Assembly: GCA_964562865.1 (NCBI GenBank)
Contig: CAZLYE010000298.1
Coordinates: 1 to 25,222, forward strand
DNA from: an uncultured Candidatus Binatia bacterium
Lineage (GTDB): Bacteria > Desulfobacterota > Binatia > DP-6
Direction of reading: 5' to 3'
DNA length: 25,222 bases
Below, in pieces: positions 1,636-11,305 of the stretch. Position numbers and translations under genes: made by a program. Below the pieces are notes generated by a model, which was given only the letters and a program-made list of their open reading frames with translations, searched no databases and was not told where the DNA came from. Within the stretch, counting starts at the first letter, position 1; each line of letters starts with the position of its first letter.

Positions 1636-2646
1636 TCAGCGGAGCGCCGGCACGACCTCGGCGCCAAGCGCCCGGAGCGACCCGAGTGCCACCTCCCGCG
1701 GGATGTTCGCCGACCCCGGGATGAGCCACACGAAGTCGAGGCCGAGCGCGGCGAGGCGGTGCAGGCGCTCGCGCGCGTGGGCCGCCGGCCCGGCGACGGC
1801 GAACCAGTCGACGAACGCGTCGTCGATCCCGGCGGTGTGCGGCACGTTCGTCCGCGTGTGCTCGCGCATGTCGTAGTGCTCGCGGAGCCAGCGGGCCGCG
1901 GCGGCGAGCGGCGGCGGGAGCTCCGCGAGCCGGCTCCCGGGGAGCGCGGAGAACCGCGCGAAGCTCGCGGCGGAGCCGCGTGCGGCGTCCCGCGCGACGC
2001 GTGCGTCGTCGTGGACGACGCAGTTGACGAAGGCGCCCCAGCGGAGCGCACGCGGATCGCGACCCGCGACGCGGGCGGCCTCGCGCGCCCGCGCCACCAC
2101 CGTACCGACGTACGCGGCGTCGGCGCCGACGGCGAGGCACACGGCGTCCGCGCGCCGCGCCGCCACCTCGACCACCCGGCGTCCGGTCGCGGCGACCATG
2201 ACCGGCGGCTTCGCCACGCCTGCGTGCGGCTGCCACTCGAGACGGCTCGCGAACCCGTCCCGGTCGACGGCCTCGCCGGCGAGATACGCCTGCAGCAGCG
2301 TCACGTAGCGCTCGAAGCTGGCGACGGGATCCTCCCGCTTCCCGATCCGCTGCACCGCCGAGTCGCCGCGCCCGATGCCGACGACCGCGCGCCCGCCGCT
2401 CTCCACCTGGAGGGCGAGGGCGGCCGACGCCGTCACGGCCGGGTCGCGGGTGAGCGAGTTCGTGACGCCCGGACCGAGGATCAGACGCGAGGTAGCGGCC
2501 GCCGCGAGCGCGAGCTGGCCCCACACCTCCGGAAGGAGGTTCTGGCTGTCGGGAAAGAGGACGCCCGCGAAGCCGAGACCCTCCACGAACTGCGCGAGCG
2601 GAGCCGCCTGACGCGGCGGGGCGAAGAGGAGCACACCGACGTCCAT
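1636..2646 (-). CDS. Luciferase-like (LLM) flavin- or F420-dependent oxidoreductase
   Basis: EGLGFAGVLFPDSQ, LAAAATSRLILGPGVTN, ESGGRAVVGIGRGD and PPVMVAATGRRVVEVAARRADAV match the Mer-like LLM TIM-barrel. ATG at 2646 preferred over the track TTG at 2685. Confidence 0.9.
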   Translation of the reverse strand: MDVGVLLFAPPRQAAPLAQFVEGLGFAGVLFPDSQNLLPEVWGQLALAAAATSRLILGPGVTNSLTRDPAVTASAALALQVESGGRAVVGIGRGDSAVQRIGKREDPVASFERYVTLLQAYLAGEAVDRDGFASRLEWQPHAGVAKPPVMVAATGRRVVEVAARRADAVCLAVGADAAYVGTVVARAREAARVAGRDPRALRWGAFVNCVVHDDARVARDAARGSAASFARFSALPGSRLAELPPPLAAAARWLREHYDMREHTRTNVPHTAGIDDAFVDWFAVAGPAAHARERLHRLAALGLDFVWLIPGSANIPREVALGSLRALGAEVVPALR

Positions 2647-2685
2647 GCGACGGCCCCTATCGCAGCCCGCGGCCCCGTCACGCAA

Positions 2686-3375
2686 CTACCCGCGCATCCC
2701 GACCCTCCGCGTGCGCGACGCCGGCACGCGCCATCGCGCGAGCCAGACGGCCCCCAGCGCGGCCGAGAGCGTCGTCCACACGAGGACCGGAATCATGTGC
2801 CAGGCGAGGACGTGCAGCGAATCGTCGATCGGGCAGGCGACGCGCACGGCGGCCGTGCCGACGACGAACGCCGCGAGGCCCGCGAGCGCTCCCGTGGTGC
2901 GCGCCTCGAGCGGGGCGCCGCGGCGGACGGCCACGAGGATCGCCACCCAGGGCAGCAGACCGAACATGGTGACGCAGAGCGCGCACTGGAGCCCACTCTG
3001 GACGGCCGGACTCCCCGACGACGGCACCGCCGGCTCCGCCAGGAGGAGCACGGCGCTCGCGACACTCAGCACGAGCGCGAGCCAGGCCATCCGGCGCCCG
3101 TCGCGGCCGGGGACGGCGCCGTGGAACGCGGCGCTCGCCGCCGCCGTCGCGGCAGCGAGCAACGTCGCGAGCTCGAGGAGATGGAGCGGCTGGCCGAGCG
3201 TCTTCAGGTCGTGGCGGAGGCTCGCCGCCATCGCGACGCCGATCACGAGCGCGACGAGGAGGAGCCACGAGGCGAGACGTGCCGCCGGCGACCAGAGCGG
3301 GTGCACCGGCGCCAGATCGGCCTTGAGCCGCGCGACGAGCGTATCGTGGACCGGAGGTGTGCGGAGGGCCGTCAC
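2686..3375 (-). CDS. nrsF: NrsF / DUF1109 family membrane anti-sigma factor
   Basis: N-terminal LVARLKADLAPV, about six hydrophobic segments, RRGAP, Cys motifs QCALC and ACPID, and HVLAWH. GTGA overlap with the upstream ECF sigma stop. Confidence 0.88.
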   Translation of the reverse strand: MTALRTPPVHDTLVARLKADLAPVHPLWSPAARLASWLLLVALVIGVAMAASLRHDLKTLGQPLHLLELATLLAAATAAASAAFHGAVPGRDGRRMAWLALVLSVASAVLLLAEPAVPSSGSPAVQSGLQCALCVTMFGLLPWVAILVAVRRGAPLEARTTGALAGLAAFVVGTAAVRVACPIDDSLHVLAWHMIPVLVWTTLSAALGAVWLARWRVPASRTRRVGMRG

Positions 3376-3908
3376 AGGAGCTCCCGCAGCATCTTGTACG
3401 CCCGATGCGCGCGGACCTTGAGCGCGCCGGTCGTCGTGCCGGCGGCCTCGGCCGCCTCCTCGGGCGGCAGCCCGTCGAGCCGCAGCAGCCGGACGGCCTC
3501 ACGCTGGGACGCGGAGAGCGCCCCCAGGGCCTGCTCGAGACGCGTCTTCAGATGACCGTCGGCCTCGGTCGCCACCTCCGGGATCACGTCGACGAGGACC
3601 TCGTGCGCCTGGCGCGTGAGCCCGCGGCGCCGGTGGTCGGCCGCCACGCGTCGAGCGATCGCGAAGAACCACGGCTCGAGCGGGCGCGATGGCTCGTAGG
3701 TGTGCCGCGCGCGATGGAGCGCCATGAAGATCTCCTGATACACGTCCTGGGCGTCCTCCGACCGCCGCACGTGCCGCCGCACGAACCGCATCACGATCGG
3801 ACCCATCTCGTCGAGCAGCTCGCCATACGCATTCGCATCGCCCCGCTGCACCTCCGCCATGAGCCTGGCACGGCGATGGCTCGTCTCGTCACGGTCCCTC
3901 AGCTTCAT
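3372..3908 (-). CDS. ECF sigma factor, copy 1 (ECF16/SigF-like), coupled to nrsF
   Basis: Region 2 LMAEVQRGDANAYGELL…DVYQEIFMALHRARHTYEPSRPLEPWFFAIAR; region 4 LSASQREAVRL…GALKVRAHRAYKML. Start uncertain (3953, 3908 or 3860). Confidence 0.92.
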   Translation of the reverse strand: MKLRDRDETSHRRARLMAEVQRGDANAYGELLDEMGPIVMRFVRRHVRRSEDAQDVYQEIFMALHRARHTYEPSRPLEPWFFAIARRVAADHRRRGLTRQAHEVLVDVIPEVATEADGHLKTRLEQALGALSASQREAVRLLRLDGLPPEEAAEAAGTTTGALKVRAHRAYKMLRELL

Positions 3909-3909
3909 A

Positions 3910-3934
3910 TTCGTCAGGAGCGAGCGGAAGTTAC
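3910..3934 (-). promoter_or_regulatory. Candidate autoregulatory ECF16 box GTAACT-N15-CGAA
   Basis: Minus strand reads GTAACT (3934-3929), TCCGCTCGCTCCTGA, CGAA (3913-3910), T, ATG. Spacer is one base shorter than the 4809 box. Confidence 0.45.
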
Positions 3935-4174
3935 GGCAACCCGGGCGACGCATGTGAACCCGGTCGGCCGCCCGAGTCAATCCACCCTCGAGGGGTTTTG
4001 CGTTTCCGGAAGGTGTCGGCGCGAGGAATCTTCCGCGCTCGGGCGGTGCGCCGATGCCACCCATCCAGAGCCGCGTAACTCCTGCCGTGGCGCCCCCAAT
4101 GATCGAGAAGGGAAACGGCGCATCACGGTCCGCCGTGCACGGCGCCAGACTGCGGGCCGGAGCCCCTGCATCAC

Positions 4175-4771
4175 GTGGTACGCATCGCCACCACAGAGCC
4201 GGCGTCGGAGACCGCGGTCGTGGACCGCCGCGATCCGCCGTCGCGAGCCGAGCGGAGCATGCGCCGCGCGGAGCTGATGCGGTGCGCGCAGCGCGGGGAT
4301 CGGAGCGCCTACGGAGCGCTGCTCGAGGACTCGCTCGCGATCCTGACGACGCTCTTCCGCCGGCGGCTGTCGGATCCACGGGACGTCGAGGACGTCTGTC
4401 AGGAGACGTTGATCGCCGTGCATCGGGCGCGGCACAGCTTCGACGCGTCCCGGCCGTTCGAGCCCTGGCTCGTGGCCATCGCAGGGCACGTCCTCGCCGA
4501 CCACGTGCGGCGGCGCGTCCGCAGGCGCCCCGAGATCCTCGTCGCGATCCCCCCGGAAACGGTGGGAGAAGGCGACGGCGCGGCGGAGTTCGGCTTCGAG
4601 CAGGCCCTCGCGCGCCTGCCCGGAGCGCAGCGCGAGGCCTTCACGCTGATCCAGGTGGAGGGGCTGCCGGTCGAGACGGCCGCCGCCCGCGCCAACACCA
4701 GCGCCGCCGCGCTGAAGGTGCGCGCACATCGCGCGTACAAGGTCCTCCGCGACTCGCTGCGCCGAGTCTGA
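4175..4771 (+). CDS. ECF sigma factor, copy 2 (ECF16/SigF-like), divergent from copy 1
   Basis: LMRCAQRGDRSAYGALL…DVCQETLIAVHRARHSFDASRPFEPWLVAIA…LPGAQREAF…ALKVRAHRAYKVL. About half of aligned residues match copy 1 by manual count. GTG start is uncertain. Confidence 0.9.
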   Translation: MVRIATTEPASETAVVDRRDPPSRAERSMRRAELMRCAQRGDRSAYGALLEDSLAILTTLFRRRLSDPRDVEDVCQETLIAVHRARHSFDASRPFEPWLVAIAGHVLADHVRRRVRRRPEILVAIPPETVGEGDGAAEFGFEQALARLPGAQREAFTLIQVEGLPVETAAARANTSAAALKVRAHRAYKVLRDSLRRV

Positions 4772-4808
4772 GCGTCCGCGCGACGATCCGCCGAGAGATC
4801 GCGCCCCG

Positions 4809-4834
4809 GTAACCGCGGACGGATGGCGATCGAA
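4809..4834 (+). promoter_or_regulatory. ECF16/SigF-type promoter GTAACC-N16-CGAA
   Basis: GTAACC (4809-4814), GCGGACGGATGGCGAT, CGAA (4831-4834). Matches the consensus I recall for Caulobacter SigF. Lies 43 nt upstream of the ATG at 4878, next to two ECF16-type sigmas. Confidence 0.75.
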
Positions 4835-4877
4835 CTGTGGGAAGAGCGCAGTCATCCATCTCACGAAGGGGGGACCC

Positions 4878-6320
4878 ATGAGAAACACGTCGTTCGTTTC
4901 GTTGTCACTCGTTCTTCTCGCCACGTTCGCCGAGGCCGTCCAACCGCCGCCGCCCTGCCACCCGAACGCGACCGCGGGCATGGATGTCGCCGTCGTCAGC
5001 AACCGGGGGGACATCAAGAACCTTCCCGCTCCGTTGAAGGCGCAGCTCGTGCAGCTCGCCTCCCGGCCGCACAGCCAGCTTCCCACCCAGGCGTACGCCG
5101 AGGCGCACTTCGACAACGGCGCGCCTAAGCCGAGCCAGCTCTTCCAGTACTACCTCCTCGACACGAAGGGCTTCGAGCCGAATCCCTTCACGGCCCTGTT
5201 TCCGGGGATCAACGACCAGGCGATGCTGACGGCGACCGGCCCCGACTGCGACCTGCCGACGATCGGTGCGGTCCGCCTCGTCCTCGAGCCCAAGCCGGCT
5301 CTCCCGACGGACCCGAACAACGTGCGCGCGTTCATCGACGTCTTCACCGACGTCGAAGGGCTCTTCGTGATCAACAACGAGAGCGGCTGGTACGAGGGCT
5401 GGATGATCCACGACCTCGAGGTCGCGCCGACCGACAACACGCCCCGTCCCGACGGCCACGCGAAGTTCGGCATGCTCCTCAAGAAGGACGCCGACGCCCT
5501 CAAGGCGATGGGGATGGGCAACAACGTCTTTCCCCACACGTTCACGACCAACGGGAAGCCACCGGAGCCGCCCCAGCCGACGGACCAGTTCCCGACGAAG
5601 CAGACGAACCTCGTGCCGATCCAGCTGAGCATGGGGGCATGGAACACGCTCCAGCAGAGCGACGGGCACGGCTACTGGGAGTTCAACTACACCACGAACT
5701 GGATCCACCCGCTCTACGAGCTCCCCTTCACCGGCGGCCTCCCGGGCACCTTCGAGGCCGGCAAGGTCGGGGCGCTCCAGTCCATCGTCCCGGGTTCGGG
5801 CCCGGCGGGCATCAAGAACGATCCCGTCAGGTACGGCGACAACCCGAACAACAGGGGCGTGATCCAGGCCTCGGGTCCGCGCGACCCCGACAAGTTCGAC
5901 GCCGACGTCGACGATCAGCGCGAGTTTCGCCAGCGTTTCATTCCGAGCGGTCTCGCCAACGAGGTCTTCCTCGACGTCTACGAGCGGCTCGCCTCGTTCG
6001 AGCCGTCCGTCCACGACTTCAACCAGCGCCTCTTCGATGCGTACGCCGCGGAGGTCAAGAGGGTCGACACCAACGGCGACGGCGTCGTCTCGGCGTTCGA
6101 GGGCGACGTGGACACCGCCTCGGACGGCTTCCCCGACAACGAGCGGCTGTTCATTCCCGCGACGAAGTTCAACCGCTTCGCCGTGACGCGCGAGATCAAC
6201 GACGGGCTGCTCGCCCCGCGCTTCGCGCCCAGCCAGAAGGCGTGGGTGCTGTCGGGGATCATCCACCCCGTGAACCCGTCCGTGCCGGCCTCGACGGGCG
6301 AGGACAGCGACGACCGCTGA
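4878..6320 (+). CDS. Secreted protein of unknown function, 480 aa, with one EF-hand-like loop
   Basis: SD GAAGGGGGG; Sec signal peptide MRNTSFVSLSLVLLATFAEA; strong C/G-ending codon bias; DTNGDGVVSAFE at residues 397-408. No family recognised. Confidence 0.92.
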   Translation: MRNTSFVSLSLVLLATFAEAVQPPPPCHPNATAGMDVAVVSNRGDIKNLPAPLKAQLVQLASRPHSQLPTQAYAEAHFDNGAPKPSQLFQYYLLDTKGFEPNPFTALFPGINDQAMLTATGPDCDLPTIGAVRLVLEPKPALPTDPNNVRAFIDVFTDVEGLFVINNESGWYEGWMIHDLEVAPTDNTPRPDGHAKFGMLLKKDADALKAMGMGNNVFPHTFTTNGKPPEPPQPTDQFPTKQTNLVPIQLSMGAWNTLQQSDGHGYWEFNYTTNWIHPLYELPFTGGLPGTFEAGKVGALQSIVPGSGPAGIKNDPVRYGDNPNNRGVIQASGPRDPDKFDADVDDQREFRQRFIPSGLANEVFLDVYERLASFEPSVHDFNQRLFDAYAAEVKRVDTNGDGVVSAFEGDVDTASDGFPDNERLFIPATKFNRFAVTREINDGLLAPRFAPSQKAWVLSGIIHPVNPSVPASTGEDSDDR

Positions 6321-6321
6321 A

Positions 6322-6789
6322 TCAGCCCCGCTCGCAGATCACGACCGGGATCTCACGCGTCGTCCGATCCTGGTACTGCGCGTAGTCCGGGTACATGGCG
6401 ACGAGACGCGGCCAGAGGACGCGCCGCTCCTCTGGCCGCGCCGTCCTGGCGCGCATCGGCACGCGCTCCCCGCCGATCTCGACCTCGCAGCGGGGTTCGC
6501 TGCGGAGGTTCAGGTACCAGGCCGGATGGTGGCTCATGCCGCCCTTCGAGCCGACGACGACGACGCGGTCGCCGTCCCGCAGGTAGAGCAGCGCGACCGT
6601 CCGCAACGCCCCCGACTTCCGGCCGCGTGTCGTCACGAGACAGATCGGCGCGCCGCCACGGAAGCGTGCGCCCAGCCGGCCGCCCGTCAGCCGGAAGAGC
6701 CAGACGTTGGCGGCGGTCATGATCCGGATGAAGACGGTCCCGATCCACTCCTGCGTCGGCGTCCAGGGCTCGAGCGGTGTCTGGGCCAT
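6322..6789 (-). CDS. Deazaflavin (F420H2)-dependent nitroreductase-family oxidoreductase (Ddn-like)
   Basis: LVTTRGRKSGALRTVALLYLRDGDRVVVVGSKGG…HPAWYLNL…YAQYQDRTTREIPVV. SD GAGGGGG before ATG 6789. True start lies inside the track ORF 6322..7950. Confidence 0.93.
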   Translation of the reverse strand: MAQTPLEPWTPTQEWIGTVFIRIMTAANVWLFRLTGGRLGARFRGGAPICLVTTRGRKSGALRTVALLYLRDGDRVVVVGSKGGMSHHPAWYLNLRSEPRCEVEIGGERVPMRARTARPEERRVLWPRLVAMYPDYAQYQDRTTREIPVVICERG

Positions 6790-8371: not shown

Positions 8372-11305
8372 TCACCGCCCGACCAACGTCTTTCCCTTCT
8401 TCCTGAGCGTCGCCTCGCCGCGGAAGGACTGGCCGCCGCCCGTCATCCACAGGCGGACGACGTCTCCCGCGTTTGGCGCCGGCGTGACGGGCGAGATGGT
8501 GGCTCGCGCGCGCACGCCGCGCTTCCCGGCCTGCAGGACGAGCCCCGTGAGCGCGTGATCCGCGGCGGCCAGGCGGAGCGTGTGCCGGCCCTTCCGGCGG
8601 AGACCGGGCGTCCCGCAGTACGTCTCCGCGGCGGCGACGGTCATGCCGAACGCGGTCGCCGCGGGATCGAGCGTCAGACCCACCGGCACGTCGGCGACCA
8701 CCTTGGCGCGCGCGGCCCGCCGGCGGTGCGCCGGGCGGATCGCCACCTGACGCACCGCGAGCGCGCCGGCCGGGCAGTCCGGGTCCGCGGCGTCGATGAG
8801 GCCGTCGCCGTCGTCGTCCGCGCAGTCGCCGCAGCGAAGCTCCTCGTGGCAGTCGGCGATGCCGTTCCGGTTCACGTCGACGTCGGGCCGCGCGAGCCCG
8901 GGAACGACCACGGCGCCCCCGGTCATGGTGGCCGCCTGTGCGACCAGGTCGGGCGCACCGTCCCCGTTCACGTCGCCCGCCGCCAGGCCGAGCACGCGGC
9001 GGCCGAACGGAACCGCGCGTGCGGGCTCGAAGGTCCCGTCGCCGTGGTTGCGGAAGACGAACGCCCCGTTGCCGCCGAGCGCGGGGAACACGAGATCGAG
9101 ATGGCCGTCGTGGTCGAGGTCCGCGACCGGCAGCGGCCCGAGGATGCCGGGGAAGACCCGCCCGAGGGGTGGGAGTCCCGACGCGAACCCGAGCGCCTGG
9201 ACGAGGGTGTAGGTCCCGCCGCTCGCGCGGGCGATGCGGACGCGGAGCTCGCCCGTCGGATCGAACTCCAGGAGTGCCAGGTCGAGGTCGCCGTCGCCGT
9301 CGAAGTCTCCGCCCGTCAGTCCGAGGAAGGTGGTGGGGGGCGTCTGCGCCAGGATCGGCGCCTCCGCGACGAGCGTGCCCGCGTCGTTGCGGATCACCTG
9401 CACCTCCGTGATGCCCCCCGGAAGGAGGAGGAGCGTCACGAGGTCCGTGTCCCCGTCGCCGTCGACGTCGCCTGCGACCAGGTCCGTTCCCCGCCCCGCG
9501 AGCGCGACCGGCGGCTGCGCCGCGAACATCCCGCCACCGGTGCCGGCGAGCACGACGAGCGAGTTCACGTCGCTGTACGCCGCGGCGAGATCGAGGACGC
9601 CGTCGCCGGTGAACTCGCCCGCCACGATGGCGTTGGGGACGTTCGGGAGCACGTAGCTGTCCGCGGCGCCGATCGTCCCGCTCCCGGTGTTGCGGAGGAC
9701 GTACACCGTCATCGCGGCGCCGGCACCGACCACGAGGTCACGGTCGCCGTCGCCGTCCACGTCGACCAGGAGGATCCGCGTGGGCGTGTCGGCGAGCGGG
9801 AAGGCCGAGCCCACCTCGGCGACGGTGCCGTCCGCCGCGCCGCGTGCGATGACGATGGAGGAGCCGGTGCCCTGGAGGACGACGTCGGTCCGGCCGTCGC
9901 CGTCGAGGTCGCCCGCGGCGAACGCCGGCGCGCGCTCCGCACGCGCGTCCGCGAGCGACGTGAAGATGGGGGCGGCGAAGGCGACCGGAAAGGCGGCGTC
10001 GCAGGTGTCCGCGACGCCGTTGGCGTTGCAGTCGAGCCGGGGCGCCTCGCACGAGTCGGGCACGCCGCTCGCGTCGCAGTCGCGGGCGACCGCGGCCGCC
10101 CCGTGGAGGATGCTGACGGTGCCGTCGACCGAGTCCGAGGCGAGCACGTCCGTGTGGCCGTCGCCGTCGACGTCCGCGGCCGCGACGTCGAGCGGGCCGG
10201 TCCCGGCGGGGAAGGCCACGGGCGTGCTGAAGTGCCCGGTCCCATCGTTCAGGGCGAGGACGACGGCGTTCCCGGCCGACGAGACCGCGACCACGTCGGG
10301 CGCGCCGTTGCCGTCGACGTCGACCAGCTGGAGCGCGGTGCCCCCGGAGCCGGCCCGGACGGTCCCGGCGGCGGTGAAGGTCCCCGTGCCGTCGTTCAGG
10401 AAGATGTGGACGGCCGCGTCGGTCCCACTCAGGACGCCGAGGTCGAGGTCGCCGTCGGCGTCGAGGTCGGCGACGGCCAGCGAGGCAGGGTCGGGCACGG
10501 TGGCCGCGGTGGTCGCCGGGCCGACGATGTTGGTTCCGGTGCCCCGGAGAAGGCCGACCGTCCCGCTCCCGCGGTTCGCGATGAGCAGGTCGGCGTTGCC
10601 GTCCAGGTCGACGTCGGCGGCGACGAGCGCCTGCGGCCCGGTGCCGGTCGCGATCGTCGAGAACGGCCCGCTGAAGTTGCCCATGCCGTCGTTCAGGAGC
10701 GCGCGCACGCCTCCCCCGTCGCGGATGGAGATCGCGATCTCGGGCGCGCCGTCGCCCGTGACATCGAGGATCGCGAGGCCGTTCGGGTGACCCGGCACCG
10801 CGAACGGGCTGCCCGTGACGTCCGTGAACGTCCCGTCGCCGCCGTTCCGGAGGACCGACACGCTGTTCGCGTCGCCGTTCGCGACGACGAGGTCGGTGTT
10901 GCTCCCGAGGAGGATGATGCCCCCGCTCGTGTCGAGGACGGCGGCCGCGATGGCCTCGGGCCGGGCGCCGACGGTCACCGTCCCGGCGGTGGTGAACGTG
11001 CCGTCGGCGGCGCCGGCGAGGATCGTGACGGTCCCGGCCACGCGGTTCGCGACGGCCAGGTCACCGATCCCGTCGCCGGTCAGCTCCGCCGCGACCATGG
11101 CGGCTGGGAACGACCCGGCCGGCGTCGTGCTCCGCGTGAACCCGAGCGGGAAGAGGTCGCAGGCATCGGGGACGCCGTTCGCGTTGCAGTCGGCGGCCCC
11201 GCCGGCGATCTCCGTGGCGTCGTCGACGCCGTTCAGGTTGCAGTCCGTCGCGCCGGCCGTCGCGATCCACGCGAGCAGCACGAAGGGCACAGCCATCCTC
11301 CGCAT
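8372..11305 (-). CDS. Secreted FG-GAP/VCBS repeat protein (2 x 7 repeats) with DCNxNG Cys/Asp motifs
   Basis: Signal peptide MRRMAVPFVLLAWIATAGA; 14 DxDGDGxxDL-type repeats in two blocks of 7; DCNxNGVxDxC motifs; CADDDGDGLIDAADPDC near the C-terminus; SD GGAGG. Confidence 0.93.
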   Translation of the reverse strand: MRRMAVPFVLLAWIATAGATDCNLNGVDDATEIAGGAADCNANGVPDACDLFPLGFTRSTTPAGSFPAAMVAAELTGDGIGDLAVANRVAGTVTILAGAADGTFTTAGTVTVGARPEAIAAAVLDTSGGIILLGSNTDLVVANGDANSVSVLRNGGDGTFTDVTGSPFAVPGHPNGLAILDVTGDGAPEIAISIRDGGGVRALLNDGMGNFSGPFSTIATGTGPQALVAADVDLDGNADLLIANRGSGTVGLLRGTGTNIVGPATTAATVPDPASLAVADLDADGDLDLGVLSGTDAAVHIFLNDGTGTFTAAGTVRAGSGGTALQLVDVDGNGAPDVVAVSSAGNAVVLALNDGTGHFSTPVAFPAGTGPLDVAAADVDGDGHTDVLASDSVDGTVSILHGAAAVARDCDASGVPDSCEAPRLDCNANGVADTCDAAFPVAFAAPIFTSLADARAERAPAFAAGDLDGDGRTDVVLQGTGSSIVIARGAADGTVAEVGSAFPLADTPTRILLVDVDGDGDRDLVVGAGAAMTVYVLRNTGSGTIGAADSYVLPNVPNAIVAGEFTGDGVLDLAAAYSDVNSLVVLAGTGGGMFAAQPPVALAGRGTDLVAGDVDGDGDTDLVTLLLLPGGITEVQVIRNDAGTLVAEAPILAQTPPTTFLGLTGGDFDGDGDLDLALLEFDPTGELRVRIARASGGTYTLVQALGFASGLPPLGRVFPGILGPLPVADLDHDGHLDLVFPALGGNGAFVFRNHGDGTFEPARAVPFGRRVLGLAAGDVNGDGAPDLVAQAATMTGGAVVVPGLARPDVDVNRNGIADCHEELRCGDCADDDGDGLIDAADPDCPAGALAVRQVAIRPAHRRRAARAKVVADVPVGLTLDPAATAFGMTVAAAETYCGTPGLRRKGRHTLRLAAADHALTGLVLQAGKRGVRARATISPVTPAPNAGDVVRLWMTGGGQSFRGEATLRKKGKTLVGR

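Follow-up and report, generated by a model that had tools for sequence, protein, structure and literature searches.

How is a locus to be understood that encodes two sigma factors of one family and a single protein to restrain them? Extracytoplasmic function (ECF) sigma factors and their anti-sigma factors are usually treated as one-to-one modules, and it is chiefly in the alphaproteobacterial general stress response that natural cascades of paralogous ECF sigma factors have been elucidated. The locus in question lies in an uncultured wetland Candidatus Binatia bacterium (assembly GCA_964562865.1, contig CAZLYE010000298.1), within a stretch of 25 kb and ~74% G+C that is hereafter called the window. 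Two divergent ECF sigma genes stand there head to head; behind the first (sigma 1) lies the gene of an NrsF-type membrane anti-sigma factor, and behind the second (sigma 2) the gene of a secreted protein, p480. The sigma genes belong to one family, the arrangement is conserved in relatives, purifying selection acts on the genes, and three promoter boxes are conserved with them. Our preferred reading, to which we give a probability of about 0.5, is a two-tier cascade or coherent feed-forward circuit: sigma 1, once released from NrsF, would induce itself and sigma 2, and sigma 2 would drive p480. The four genes are:

2686..3375, minus strand: nrsF, a membrane anti-sigma factor of the NrsF type (DUF1109), matched over its full length by PF06532 (E 8e-26); the first 4 nt of the gene are shared with the end of sigma 1
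3372..3908, minus strand: sigma 1, an ECF sigma factor (Sigma70_r2 and r4_2) and the cognate partner of NrsF
4259..4771, plus strand: sigma 2, an ECF sigma factor (Sigma70_r2 and r4_2) with no dedicated anti-sigma gene; p480 follows it
4878..6320, plus strand: p480, a secreted protein of 480 aa, with a signal-peptide-like N-terminus read directly from the sequence

Three promoter boxes and their partition

The promoters carry most of the argument. The motif of Caulobacter sigmaF is GTAACC-N16-CGAA (PMC3511200), and the consensus of the ECF16 group is (T/C)GTAAC-N17-CGAA (PMC8315932). Against 0.06 expected, the 25-kb window holds two exact matches to GTAAC-N15-18-CGAA (3934-3910 on the minus strand; 4809-4834), both already singled out in an earlier model's reading of the DNA without database searches (the sequence-only reading). 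With the -10 variants of the family allowed there are exactly three boxes in the window, one each before sigma 1, sigma 2 and p480, of which the one at 4075-4099 had not been listed before:

3910..3934, minus strand: P_sig1, GTAACT-N15-CGAA, an exact GTAAC-N15-18-CGAA match just before sigma 1
4075..4099, plus strand: P_sig2, GTAACT-N15-CCAA, of sigma-1 flavour, ~180 nt upstream of the sigma 2 start and found with the family -10 variants allowed
4809..4834, plus strand: P_p480, GTAACC-N16-CGAA, the exact Caulobacter sigmaF motif, 44 nt upstream of the p480 start

Across the wider family described below, a GTAAC-N14-18-C[GC][AT]A box is present in 76 of 121 distinct upstream regions, the background for a near-identical pattern (N15-17) being 0.03 per 310 nt. 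In related loci (numbered with the prefix L), the P_sig1 position holds a box in L001, L086, L156, L115/L120, L177 and L173, and P_sig2 is kept in L002, L001 and L086/L172; all three boxes are position-conserved in L001 and L086/L172, where they form islands in an otherwise diverged spacer. The boxes are also partitioned by their form. P_p480 is GTAACC-N16-CGAA in five of the five lineages that carry sigma 2 (window/L002, L171, L001, L086/L172 and L169/L170), and P_sig1 and P_sig2 stay GTAACT-N15-C(C/G)AA. In all three lineages that lack sigma 2 and have a divergent p480, the two promoters alike have an N15 spacer and a (C/G)CAA -10, which is consistent with one sigma factor reading both. This partition is the main basis for our proposed assignment of P_sig1 and P_sig2 to sigma 1 and of P_p480 to sigma 2. 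With the same promoter class before both sigma genes and the gene downstream, the earlier suggestion that the pair forms a cascade or an amplifier looks plausible; a box of the sigma-1 class precedes sigma 2 in three lineages, and no anti-sigma gene adjoins sigma 2.

Sigma 1 and its anti-sigma factor

Orthologues of sigma 1 are 63-75% identical to it and all have nrsF as the next gene, and the ratio of non-synonymous to synonymous substitution rates (dN/dS) is 0.24-0.40 for sigma 1 and 0.24-0.39 for NrsF. The latter has cysteines at positions 131, 134 and 181. In Caulobacter NrsF, substitution at C131 or C181, the two conserved cysteines, releases sigmaF (PMC3511200); Cys131 and Cys181 of the window NrsF match the positions of these key residues, and Cys134 is extra. 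A tblastn search of the window finds this NrsF, directly after sigma 1, and no second one, which bears out the earlier remark that only the first sigma copy is NrsF-coupled.

Sigma 1 probably starts at the ATG at 3860 (MAEVQRGD) and not at the 3908 ATG of the 178-aa reading, because the -10 element of its promoter (3906-3913 region) ends one base before the 3908 ATG, which is itself absent in L156 and L166. Just downstream of this -10 element lies a conserved GAGTCGGGGGACC.

Sigma 2 and the family of the pair

The two sigma factors are 50% identical over 167 aa (E 2e-45), in keeping with the half of residues estimated by the sequence-only reading, and both contain ALKVRAHRAYK, HRARH and SRPxEPW. 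Each has the ECF architecture of regions 2 and 4 only (TIGR02937 scores of 80.8 and 59.1 bits, cut-off 42.9), and their best NCBIfam matches are to the same models (PRK12539, PRK12512, PRK12536), below the cut-offs. Both thus come from one NrsF-coupled, ECF16-like group, and not from unrelated groups. The label is ECF16-like (SigF/NrsF type) and not formal ECF16, since the NCBIfam matches stay below their cut-offs and the best annotated relative is an NrsF-coupled sigma factor, from Asticcacaulis excentricus pASTEX01, at only 41% identity to sigma 2 and 34% to sigma 1. As for the traits of ECF16, NrsF lies directly downstream of sigma 1 and not of sigma 2, the two conserved anti-sigma cysteines are present in the window NrsF, and by sequence match the promoter form (T/C)GTAAC-N16/17-CGAA is exact in P_p480, with P_sig1 and P_sig2 as N15 variants.

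The family was delimited by scanning an alignment of the sigma 2 clade against 185,579 species genomes and Joint Genome Institute (JGI) metagenomes, with the peptide ALKVRAHRA / KVRAHRAY as pattern. At 114 of the 139 family loci nrsF directly follows the sigma gene; 13 end at a contig edge, four have a divergent NrsF-like membrane open reading frame (ORF), and eight have neither. The labelled genomes among these loci are Candidatus Binatia and uncultured 'deltaproteobacterial' or Myxococcales metagenome-assembled genomes (MAGs), and the nearest relatives of the sigma factors and NrsF come from Candidatus Binatia and 'uncultured deltaproteobacterium' MAGs. The sequence-only reading was right that ALKVRAHRAYK is identical in both copies, but it is not peculiar to the pair: it is the same helix as the search pattern that recovered the family loci, and thus a signature of the whole family. 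Several sigma modules per genome are common in these organisms: L098 carries two family sigmas 4.6 kb apart (4856-4968 and 9806-10106), the first with nrsF and the second cut by the locus end, each with a back-to-back pair of GTAACC-N15-CGAA boxes, and L006/L053 and L007/L009 are pairs from single MAGs each. In the lineage of L111 (2580-3619; also L105, L112 and L113), a family sigma factor with ALKVRAHRAYK and 55% identity to sigma 2 lacks a downstream NrsF; just upstream of it lies a small ORF whose H-x3-C-x2-C motif resembles that of zinc anti-sigma factors (zf-HC2-like), an arrangement that may reflect a swap of anti-sigma type within the family.

Is sigma 2 then a copy of its neighbour? 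Each of the two has at least 80 database relatives that are closer to it than the other copy is. A bootstrapped neighbour-joining (NJ) tree, built from 90 non-redundant family members, recovers the sigma 2 clade as monophyletic (bootstrap 97). The basal member of this clade (P0007 in L168, 61% identity) has an overlapping nrsF as its next gene, so that the sigma 2 lineage descends from an NrsF-coupled sigma factor. What survives of the old duplication proposed earlier is therefore the old paralogy; a simple local duplication does not fit the closer relatives of each copy or the basal clade member with its own NrsF. A recent local duplication was also considered, and neither the identity ranks nor the NJ tree, in which the placement of the clade within the family has support of 6-24, speaks for it.

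Sigma 2 is functional and under purifying selection. Its orthologues have dN/dS of 0.16-0.26, at least as constrained as sigma 1 and NrsF; the ORF is intact in every sigma-2 lineage recovered and lies directly upstream of p480 in all cases; and the only family-conserved positions consistently altered are T60S, L113F, G146S/N and G150A. It probably starts at the ATG at 4277, with GGAG 4 nt upstream, since sigma-2 orthologues begin MARAQ; its 5' leader shows no unusual folding (z = 0.23). The gene order, nrsF and sigma 1 running one way and sigma 2 and p480 the other, recurs in L001 (a 56-kb ENA contig, sigma 2 72% identical) and in L086/L172, so the divergent pair that the earlier reading proposed to look for in relatives is there, and the junction between the sigma genes is spanned by contigs of four separate wetland metagenome runs (among them X3 3748-4516, X4 3824-4242, X2 4025-4510). 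That sigma 2 is a decaying duplicate, or that the head-to-head junction was mis-assembled, are thus readings that we reject: nothing in their favour was found, and the intact ORFs, the dN/dS values and the repeated recovery of the junction all contradict them. The pair is nonetheless rare, for L086 was the only locus with two adjacent family sigmas in the two large scans. L171 and L169/L170 have sigma 2 followed by p480, and the gene upstream in L169 is unrelated; sigma 2 and p480 can therefore exist apart from sigma1-nrsF. That upstream gene (L169 1-906), on the same strand, encodes a Cys- and Thr-rich protein and may be co-transcribed with sigma 2.

The presence of two cysteines in sigma 2 and none in sigma 1, as first noted from the sequence alone, could suggest that sigma 2 is a thiol switch under direct redox control. 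We reject this, because the cysteines are not conserved: Cys9 is found only in the window and a 96%-identical twin, and Cys47 is replaced by Arg in P0002-P0006, five of the eight clade members in the alignment.

A different explanation of the missing second anti-sigma, and the main rival to the cascade, is that NrsF binds both sigma factors. As nrsF is made one-for-one with sigma 1, extra sigma 2 from the same promoter class would, from the onset of induction, titrate NrsF and free more sigma factor, giving a sharp or self-locking response by stoichiometric amplification, with the promoters read more or less redundantly. Nearly all residues that NrsF-coupled members conserve are kept in sigma 2, the basal member of its clade is NrsF-coupled, the N-terminal segment of NrsF is the same whether or not the genome has sigma 2, and the two sigma factors share an identical recognition helix and all three promoters a GTAAC -35. 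Full redundancy would not, however, lead one to expect that the spacer and -10 of P_p480 differ wherever sigma 2 exists, nor does a shared NrsF sit easily with the replacement in sigma 2 of two glycines of region 4 (83-93% conservation among coupled sigmas), or with the occurrence of sigma 2 and p480 away from sigma1-nrsF (L169). We regard a shared NrsF as rather unlikely.

p480 as the probable adjoining target

The cascade reading makes p480 the output of the locus. More than 3,300 homologues at 55-85% identity show it to be very strongly conserved; they occur in Acidobacteriota, Binatia and other soil MAGs, and the few that carry a name are 'hypothetical protein' entries in Blastocatellia, Thermoanaerobaculia, Acidobacteriota and Binatia MAGs. 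Clustering of a library at 50% identity leaves them in essentially one full-length cluster. No Pfam, NCBIfam, PHROG or PDB sequence match was found, and a Pfam search extended to E 10 gave only a sub-threshold EF-hand match, to the EF-hand-like loop DTNGDGVVSAFE. An AlphaFold2 (AF2) model from a shallow alignment of 37 sequences had a mean predicted local distance difference test score (pLDDT) of 34.6, and one from a more diverse alignment of 70 sequences was confident (pLDDT 79.4, predicted template modelling score, pTM, 0.83); a Foldseek search of PDB with the model returned no match (best E 1.1, TM <= 0.12). The lower G+C of p480 comes from codon positions 1 and 2, and its G+C at third positions (GC3, 0.94) is that of its neighbours, so the gene is native and not recently acquired.

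In relatives that lack sigma 2 (sigma 1 orthologue 63-70% identical), p480 lies directly beside sigma1-nrsF in three arrangements: divergent, with its own box (L156, L166/167, L177-180); upstream on the same strand (L091); and downstream of nrsF (L115/120). More distant lineages have p480 alone and no box. Its place beside sigma1-nrsF in the sigma-2-less relatives marks p480 as the signature target of the sigma1/NrsF subgroup, and in the window lineage sigma 2 has come to separate the sigma 1 promoter from that of p480. Its ECF16-type promoter suggests that p480 acts in periplasmic oxidant, hypochlorite or metal stress.

These comparisons bear on a further possibility, namely that sigma 2 is an insulated second regulator, which obeys an unlinked anti-sigma factor or a transcriptional input, autoregulates from P_sig2 and controls p480, its position being historical and cross-talk slight. 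Sigma 2 does form a distinct clade, to which dozens of foreign members are at least as close as sigma 1; it adjoins unrelated genes in L169/L170, and NrsF-less family members exist elsewhere, such as L111 with its upstream zf-HC2-like ORF. We nevertheless consider insulation improbable: P_sig2 is of sigma-1 flavour (GTAACT-N15-CCAA) and unlike P_p480, p480 is part of the sigma1/NrsF module in genomes that lack sigma 2, and an identical -35 recognition helix makes insulation at the -35 element unlikely.

How the cascade would work

In the preferred cascade, sigma 1 and the six-helix membrane anti-sigma NrsF would be the sensor pair of an envelope-stress module. By analogy with Caulobacter, Brucella and Bradyrhizobium, NrsF would hold sigma 1 at the membrane, and an oxidant, hypochlorite or a thiol-reactive metal acting on its periplasmic cysteines would release it. 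Free sigma 1 would then read the GTAACT-N15-C[C/G]AA promoters before sigma1-nrsF and before sigma 2, inducing the operon to which it belongs, with the abutting luciferase-like monooxygenase gene as a probable part of it. Sigma 2, for which the locus has no separate anti-sigma gene and which on this reading would not be held by NrsF, would in its turn read GTAACC-N16-CGAA just downstream of its own gene and drive the secreted p480, possibly assisted by sigma 1 and by read-through from the sigma 2 transcript. A more specific version goes further: as an output sigma beyond the grip of NrsF, sigma 2 would have shifted its -10/spacer preference to N16-CGAA, the p480 promoter would have been re-tuned to it after its insertion between sensor and target, and the outcome would be a natural two-tier ECF16 cascade giving delay, gain or memory and dedicated to p480, a very widespread periplasmic protein that would then be a new effector of oxidant or metal stress; this we put forward only tentatively.

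Some expression data are available from soil and freshwater metatranscriptomes, in which contigs 90-98% identical to the window correspond to sigma 1, to a portion of sigma 2, and to a segment leading from the 3' part of sigma 2 into p480. These are low-depth assembled contigs from relatives, with DNA carry-over possible, and they weakly suggest that the sigma genes are transcribed, with some read-through from sigma 2 to p480. Two RNA contigs, X22 and X23, from two metatranscriptomes, stop at the same point, 3934/3935, on the G of the GTAAC box; a P_sig1 transcript would not be expected to start there, and the ends may reflect an assembly break or a transcript from elsewhere.

Several points weigh against the cascade. 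Firstly, the assignment of sigma factors to promoters is read from sequence, and the promoter partition comes from a single clade and may represent one evolutionary event. Secondly, sigma 2 keeps nearly all family-conserved residues and may therefore still bind NrsF. Thirdly, L169/L170 have sigma 2 with no adjacent sigma1-nrsF and no GTAAC box in the 168 nt upstream of it, so the link from sigma 1 to sigma 2 is not universal. Finally, because an RNA contig spans sigma 2 into p480, p480 could be simply co-transcribed, and the RNA evidence as a whole carries the limits of depth, origin and possible DNA carry-over given above.

Relation to known systems

The closest parallels are the ECF16 systems SigF-NrsF (Caulobacter crescentus), BcrS-AbcS (Brucella), EcfF-OsrA (Bradyrhizobium) and RpoE7-EcfR7 (Sinorhizobium), which likewise consist of a sigma factor followed by a six-helix DUF1109/NrsF protein with two conserved cysteines, and which share with the window the GTAACC-N16-CGAA class, an autoregulated sigma operon (predicted in the window) and a small divergent target operon (PMC3511200, PMC8315932, PMC6180224). 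The window differs from them in its identity of only 34-41% to the nearest annotated alphaproteobacterial member, in its region-4.2 helix (ALKVRAHRAY, against AVKVIVHRGL), in its local target (p480, against DUF2282/DUF692/DUF2063 or Msr genes) and in the second, NrsF-less sigma factor of the same family built into the locus. The Asticcacaulis SigF locus (L181) shares the sigma-NrsF operon, has DUF2282 and DUF692 genes upstream and lacks p480; both domain families fall within the Caulobacter SigF regulon (PMC3511200). A positive-control motif search of that locus gave no exact box. Its asymmetry is the opposite of that in the window, with one sigma gene followed by two consecutive NrsF family genes (L181 3465-5324), against two sigmas and one NrsF here. 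The sensor half of the locus is thus a member-like relative of ECF16 SigF/NrsF, and in the full-text literature searched no description was found of the two-sigma extension, an NrsF-less ECF16 paralogue built into a SigF/NrsF locus.

The proposed logic itself has precedents in the ECF15 group, where an anti-sigma-held master ECF transcribes a paralogue of similar promoter specificity, whose own targets are part of the regulon (SigT to SigU in Caulobacter, EcfG2 to EcfG1 in Sphingopyxis granuli; PMC8103513). The ECF group differs, however, and release there is by PhyR-NepR partner switching and not, as here, from a membrane anti-sigma NrsF; moreover, those paralogues are not placed between a sensor operon and a single dedicated target gene, and no systematic re-tuning of target promoters has been described for them. 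The window genes scanned include neither PhyR nor NepR, and the module, though similar in operation to the ECF15 paralogue cascades, does not belong to that group. What the locus adds is a compact and evolutionarily replicated case, in which sister lineages with and without the second sigma factor have target promoters that differ accordingly; it bears on how a paralogous sigma factor is wired into an existing circuit and on the drift of promoter specificity within one ECF group. It also provides a first regulatory handle on p480, a protein without annotation or recognisable fold whose close homologues in soil Acidobacteriota and Binatia number in the thousands.

The wider locus

One further gene adjoins the sigma 1 operon:

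1636..2685, minus strand: a luciferase-like monooxygenase gene (PF00296, E 2.4e-45), which abuts the nrsF stop with zero gap

It is probably the third gene of the sigma1-nrsF operon, and in L001 a Bac_luciferase gene closes the same-strand run after nrsF. That run (L001 908-4463) consists of gluconate-2-dehydrogenase subunit 3, a GMC oxidoreductase and the luciferase-like monooxygenase, where the window has the monooxygenase only; redox enzymes seem to be carried along in the sigma 1 operon. The other window genes scanned are ordinary chromosomal ones (PadR, NamZ, an FG-GAP protein, Usp, an esterase, a flavin monooxygenase, SDR and a nitrile hydratase), with no mobile functions among them. An Rfam scan of 2500-6500 gave no match, and a scan for sigma-70-type promoters found none. 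Between the two sigma promoters, the spacer contains a short GC hairpin with a T-rich run after it (3984-4006, plus strand), which is not kept in L001 or L086.

The sequence-only reading had also counted a box at 925 among those to be read by the sigma factors. It is GGAAC-N16-CGAA (925-950), follows a divergent padR and falls outside the GTAAC class; it lacks the invariant T, and the 12 matches of this kind found with up to two mismatches, against 8.6 expected, are at chance level, so it does not qualify as a member of the regulon. Downstream of it lie two ORFs without Pfam matches, a Cys-rich one of 72 aa (1126-1344) and, overlapping it, one of 122 aa (1233-1601) with the better codon statistics.

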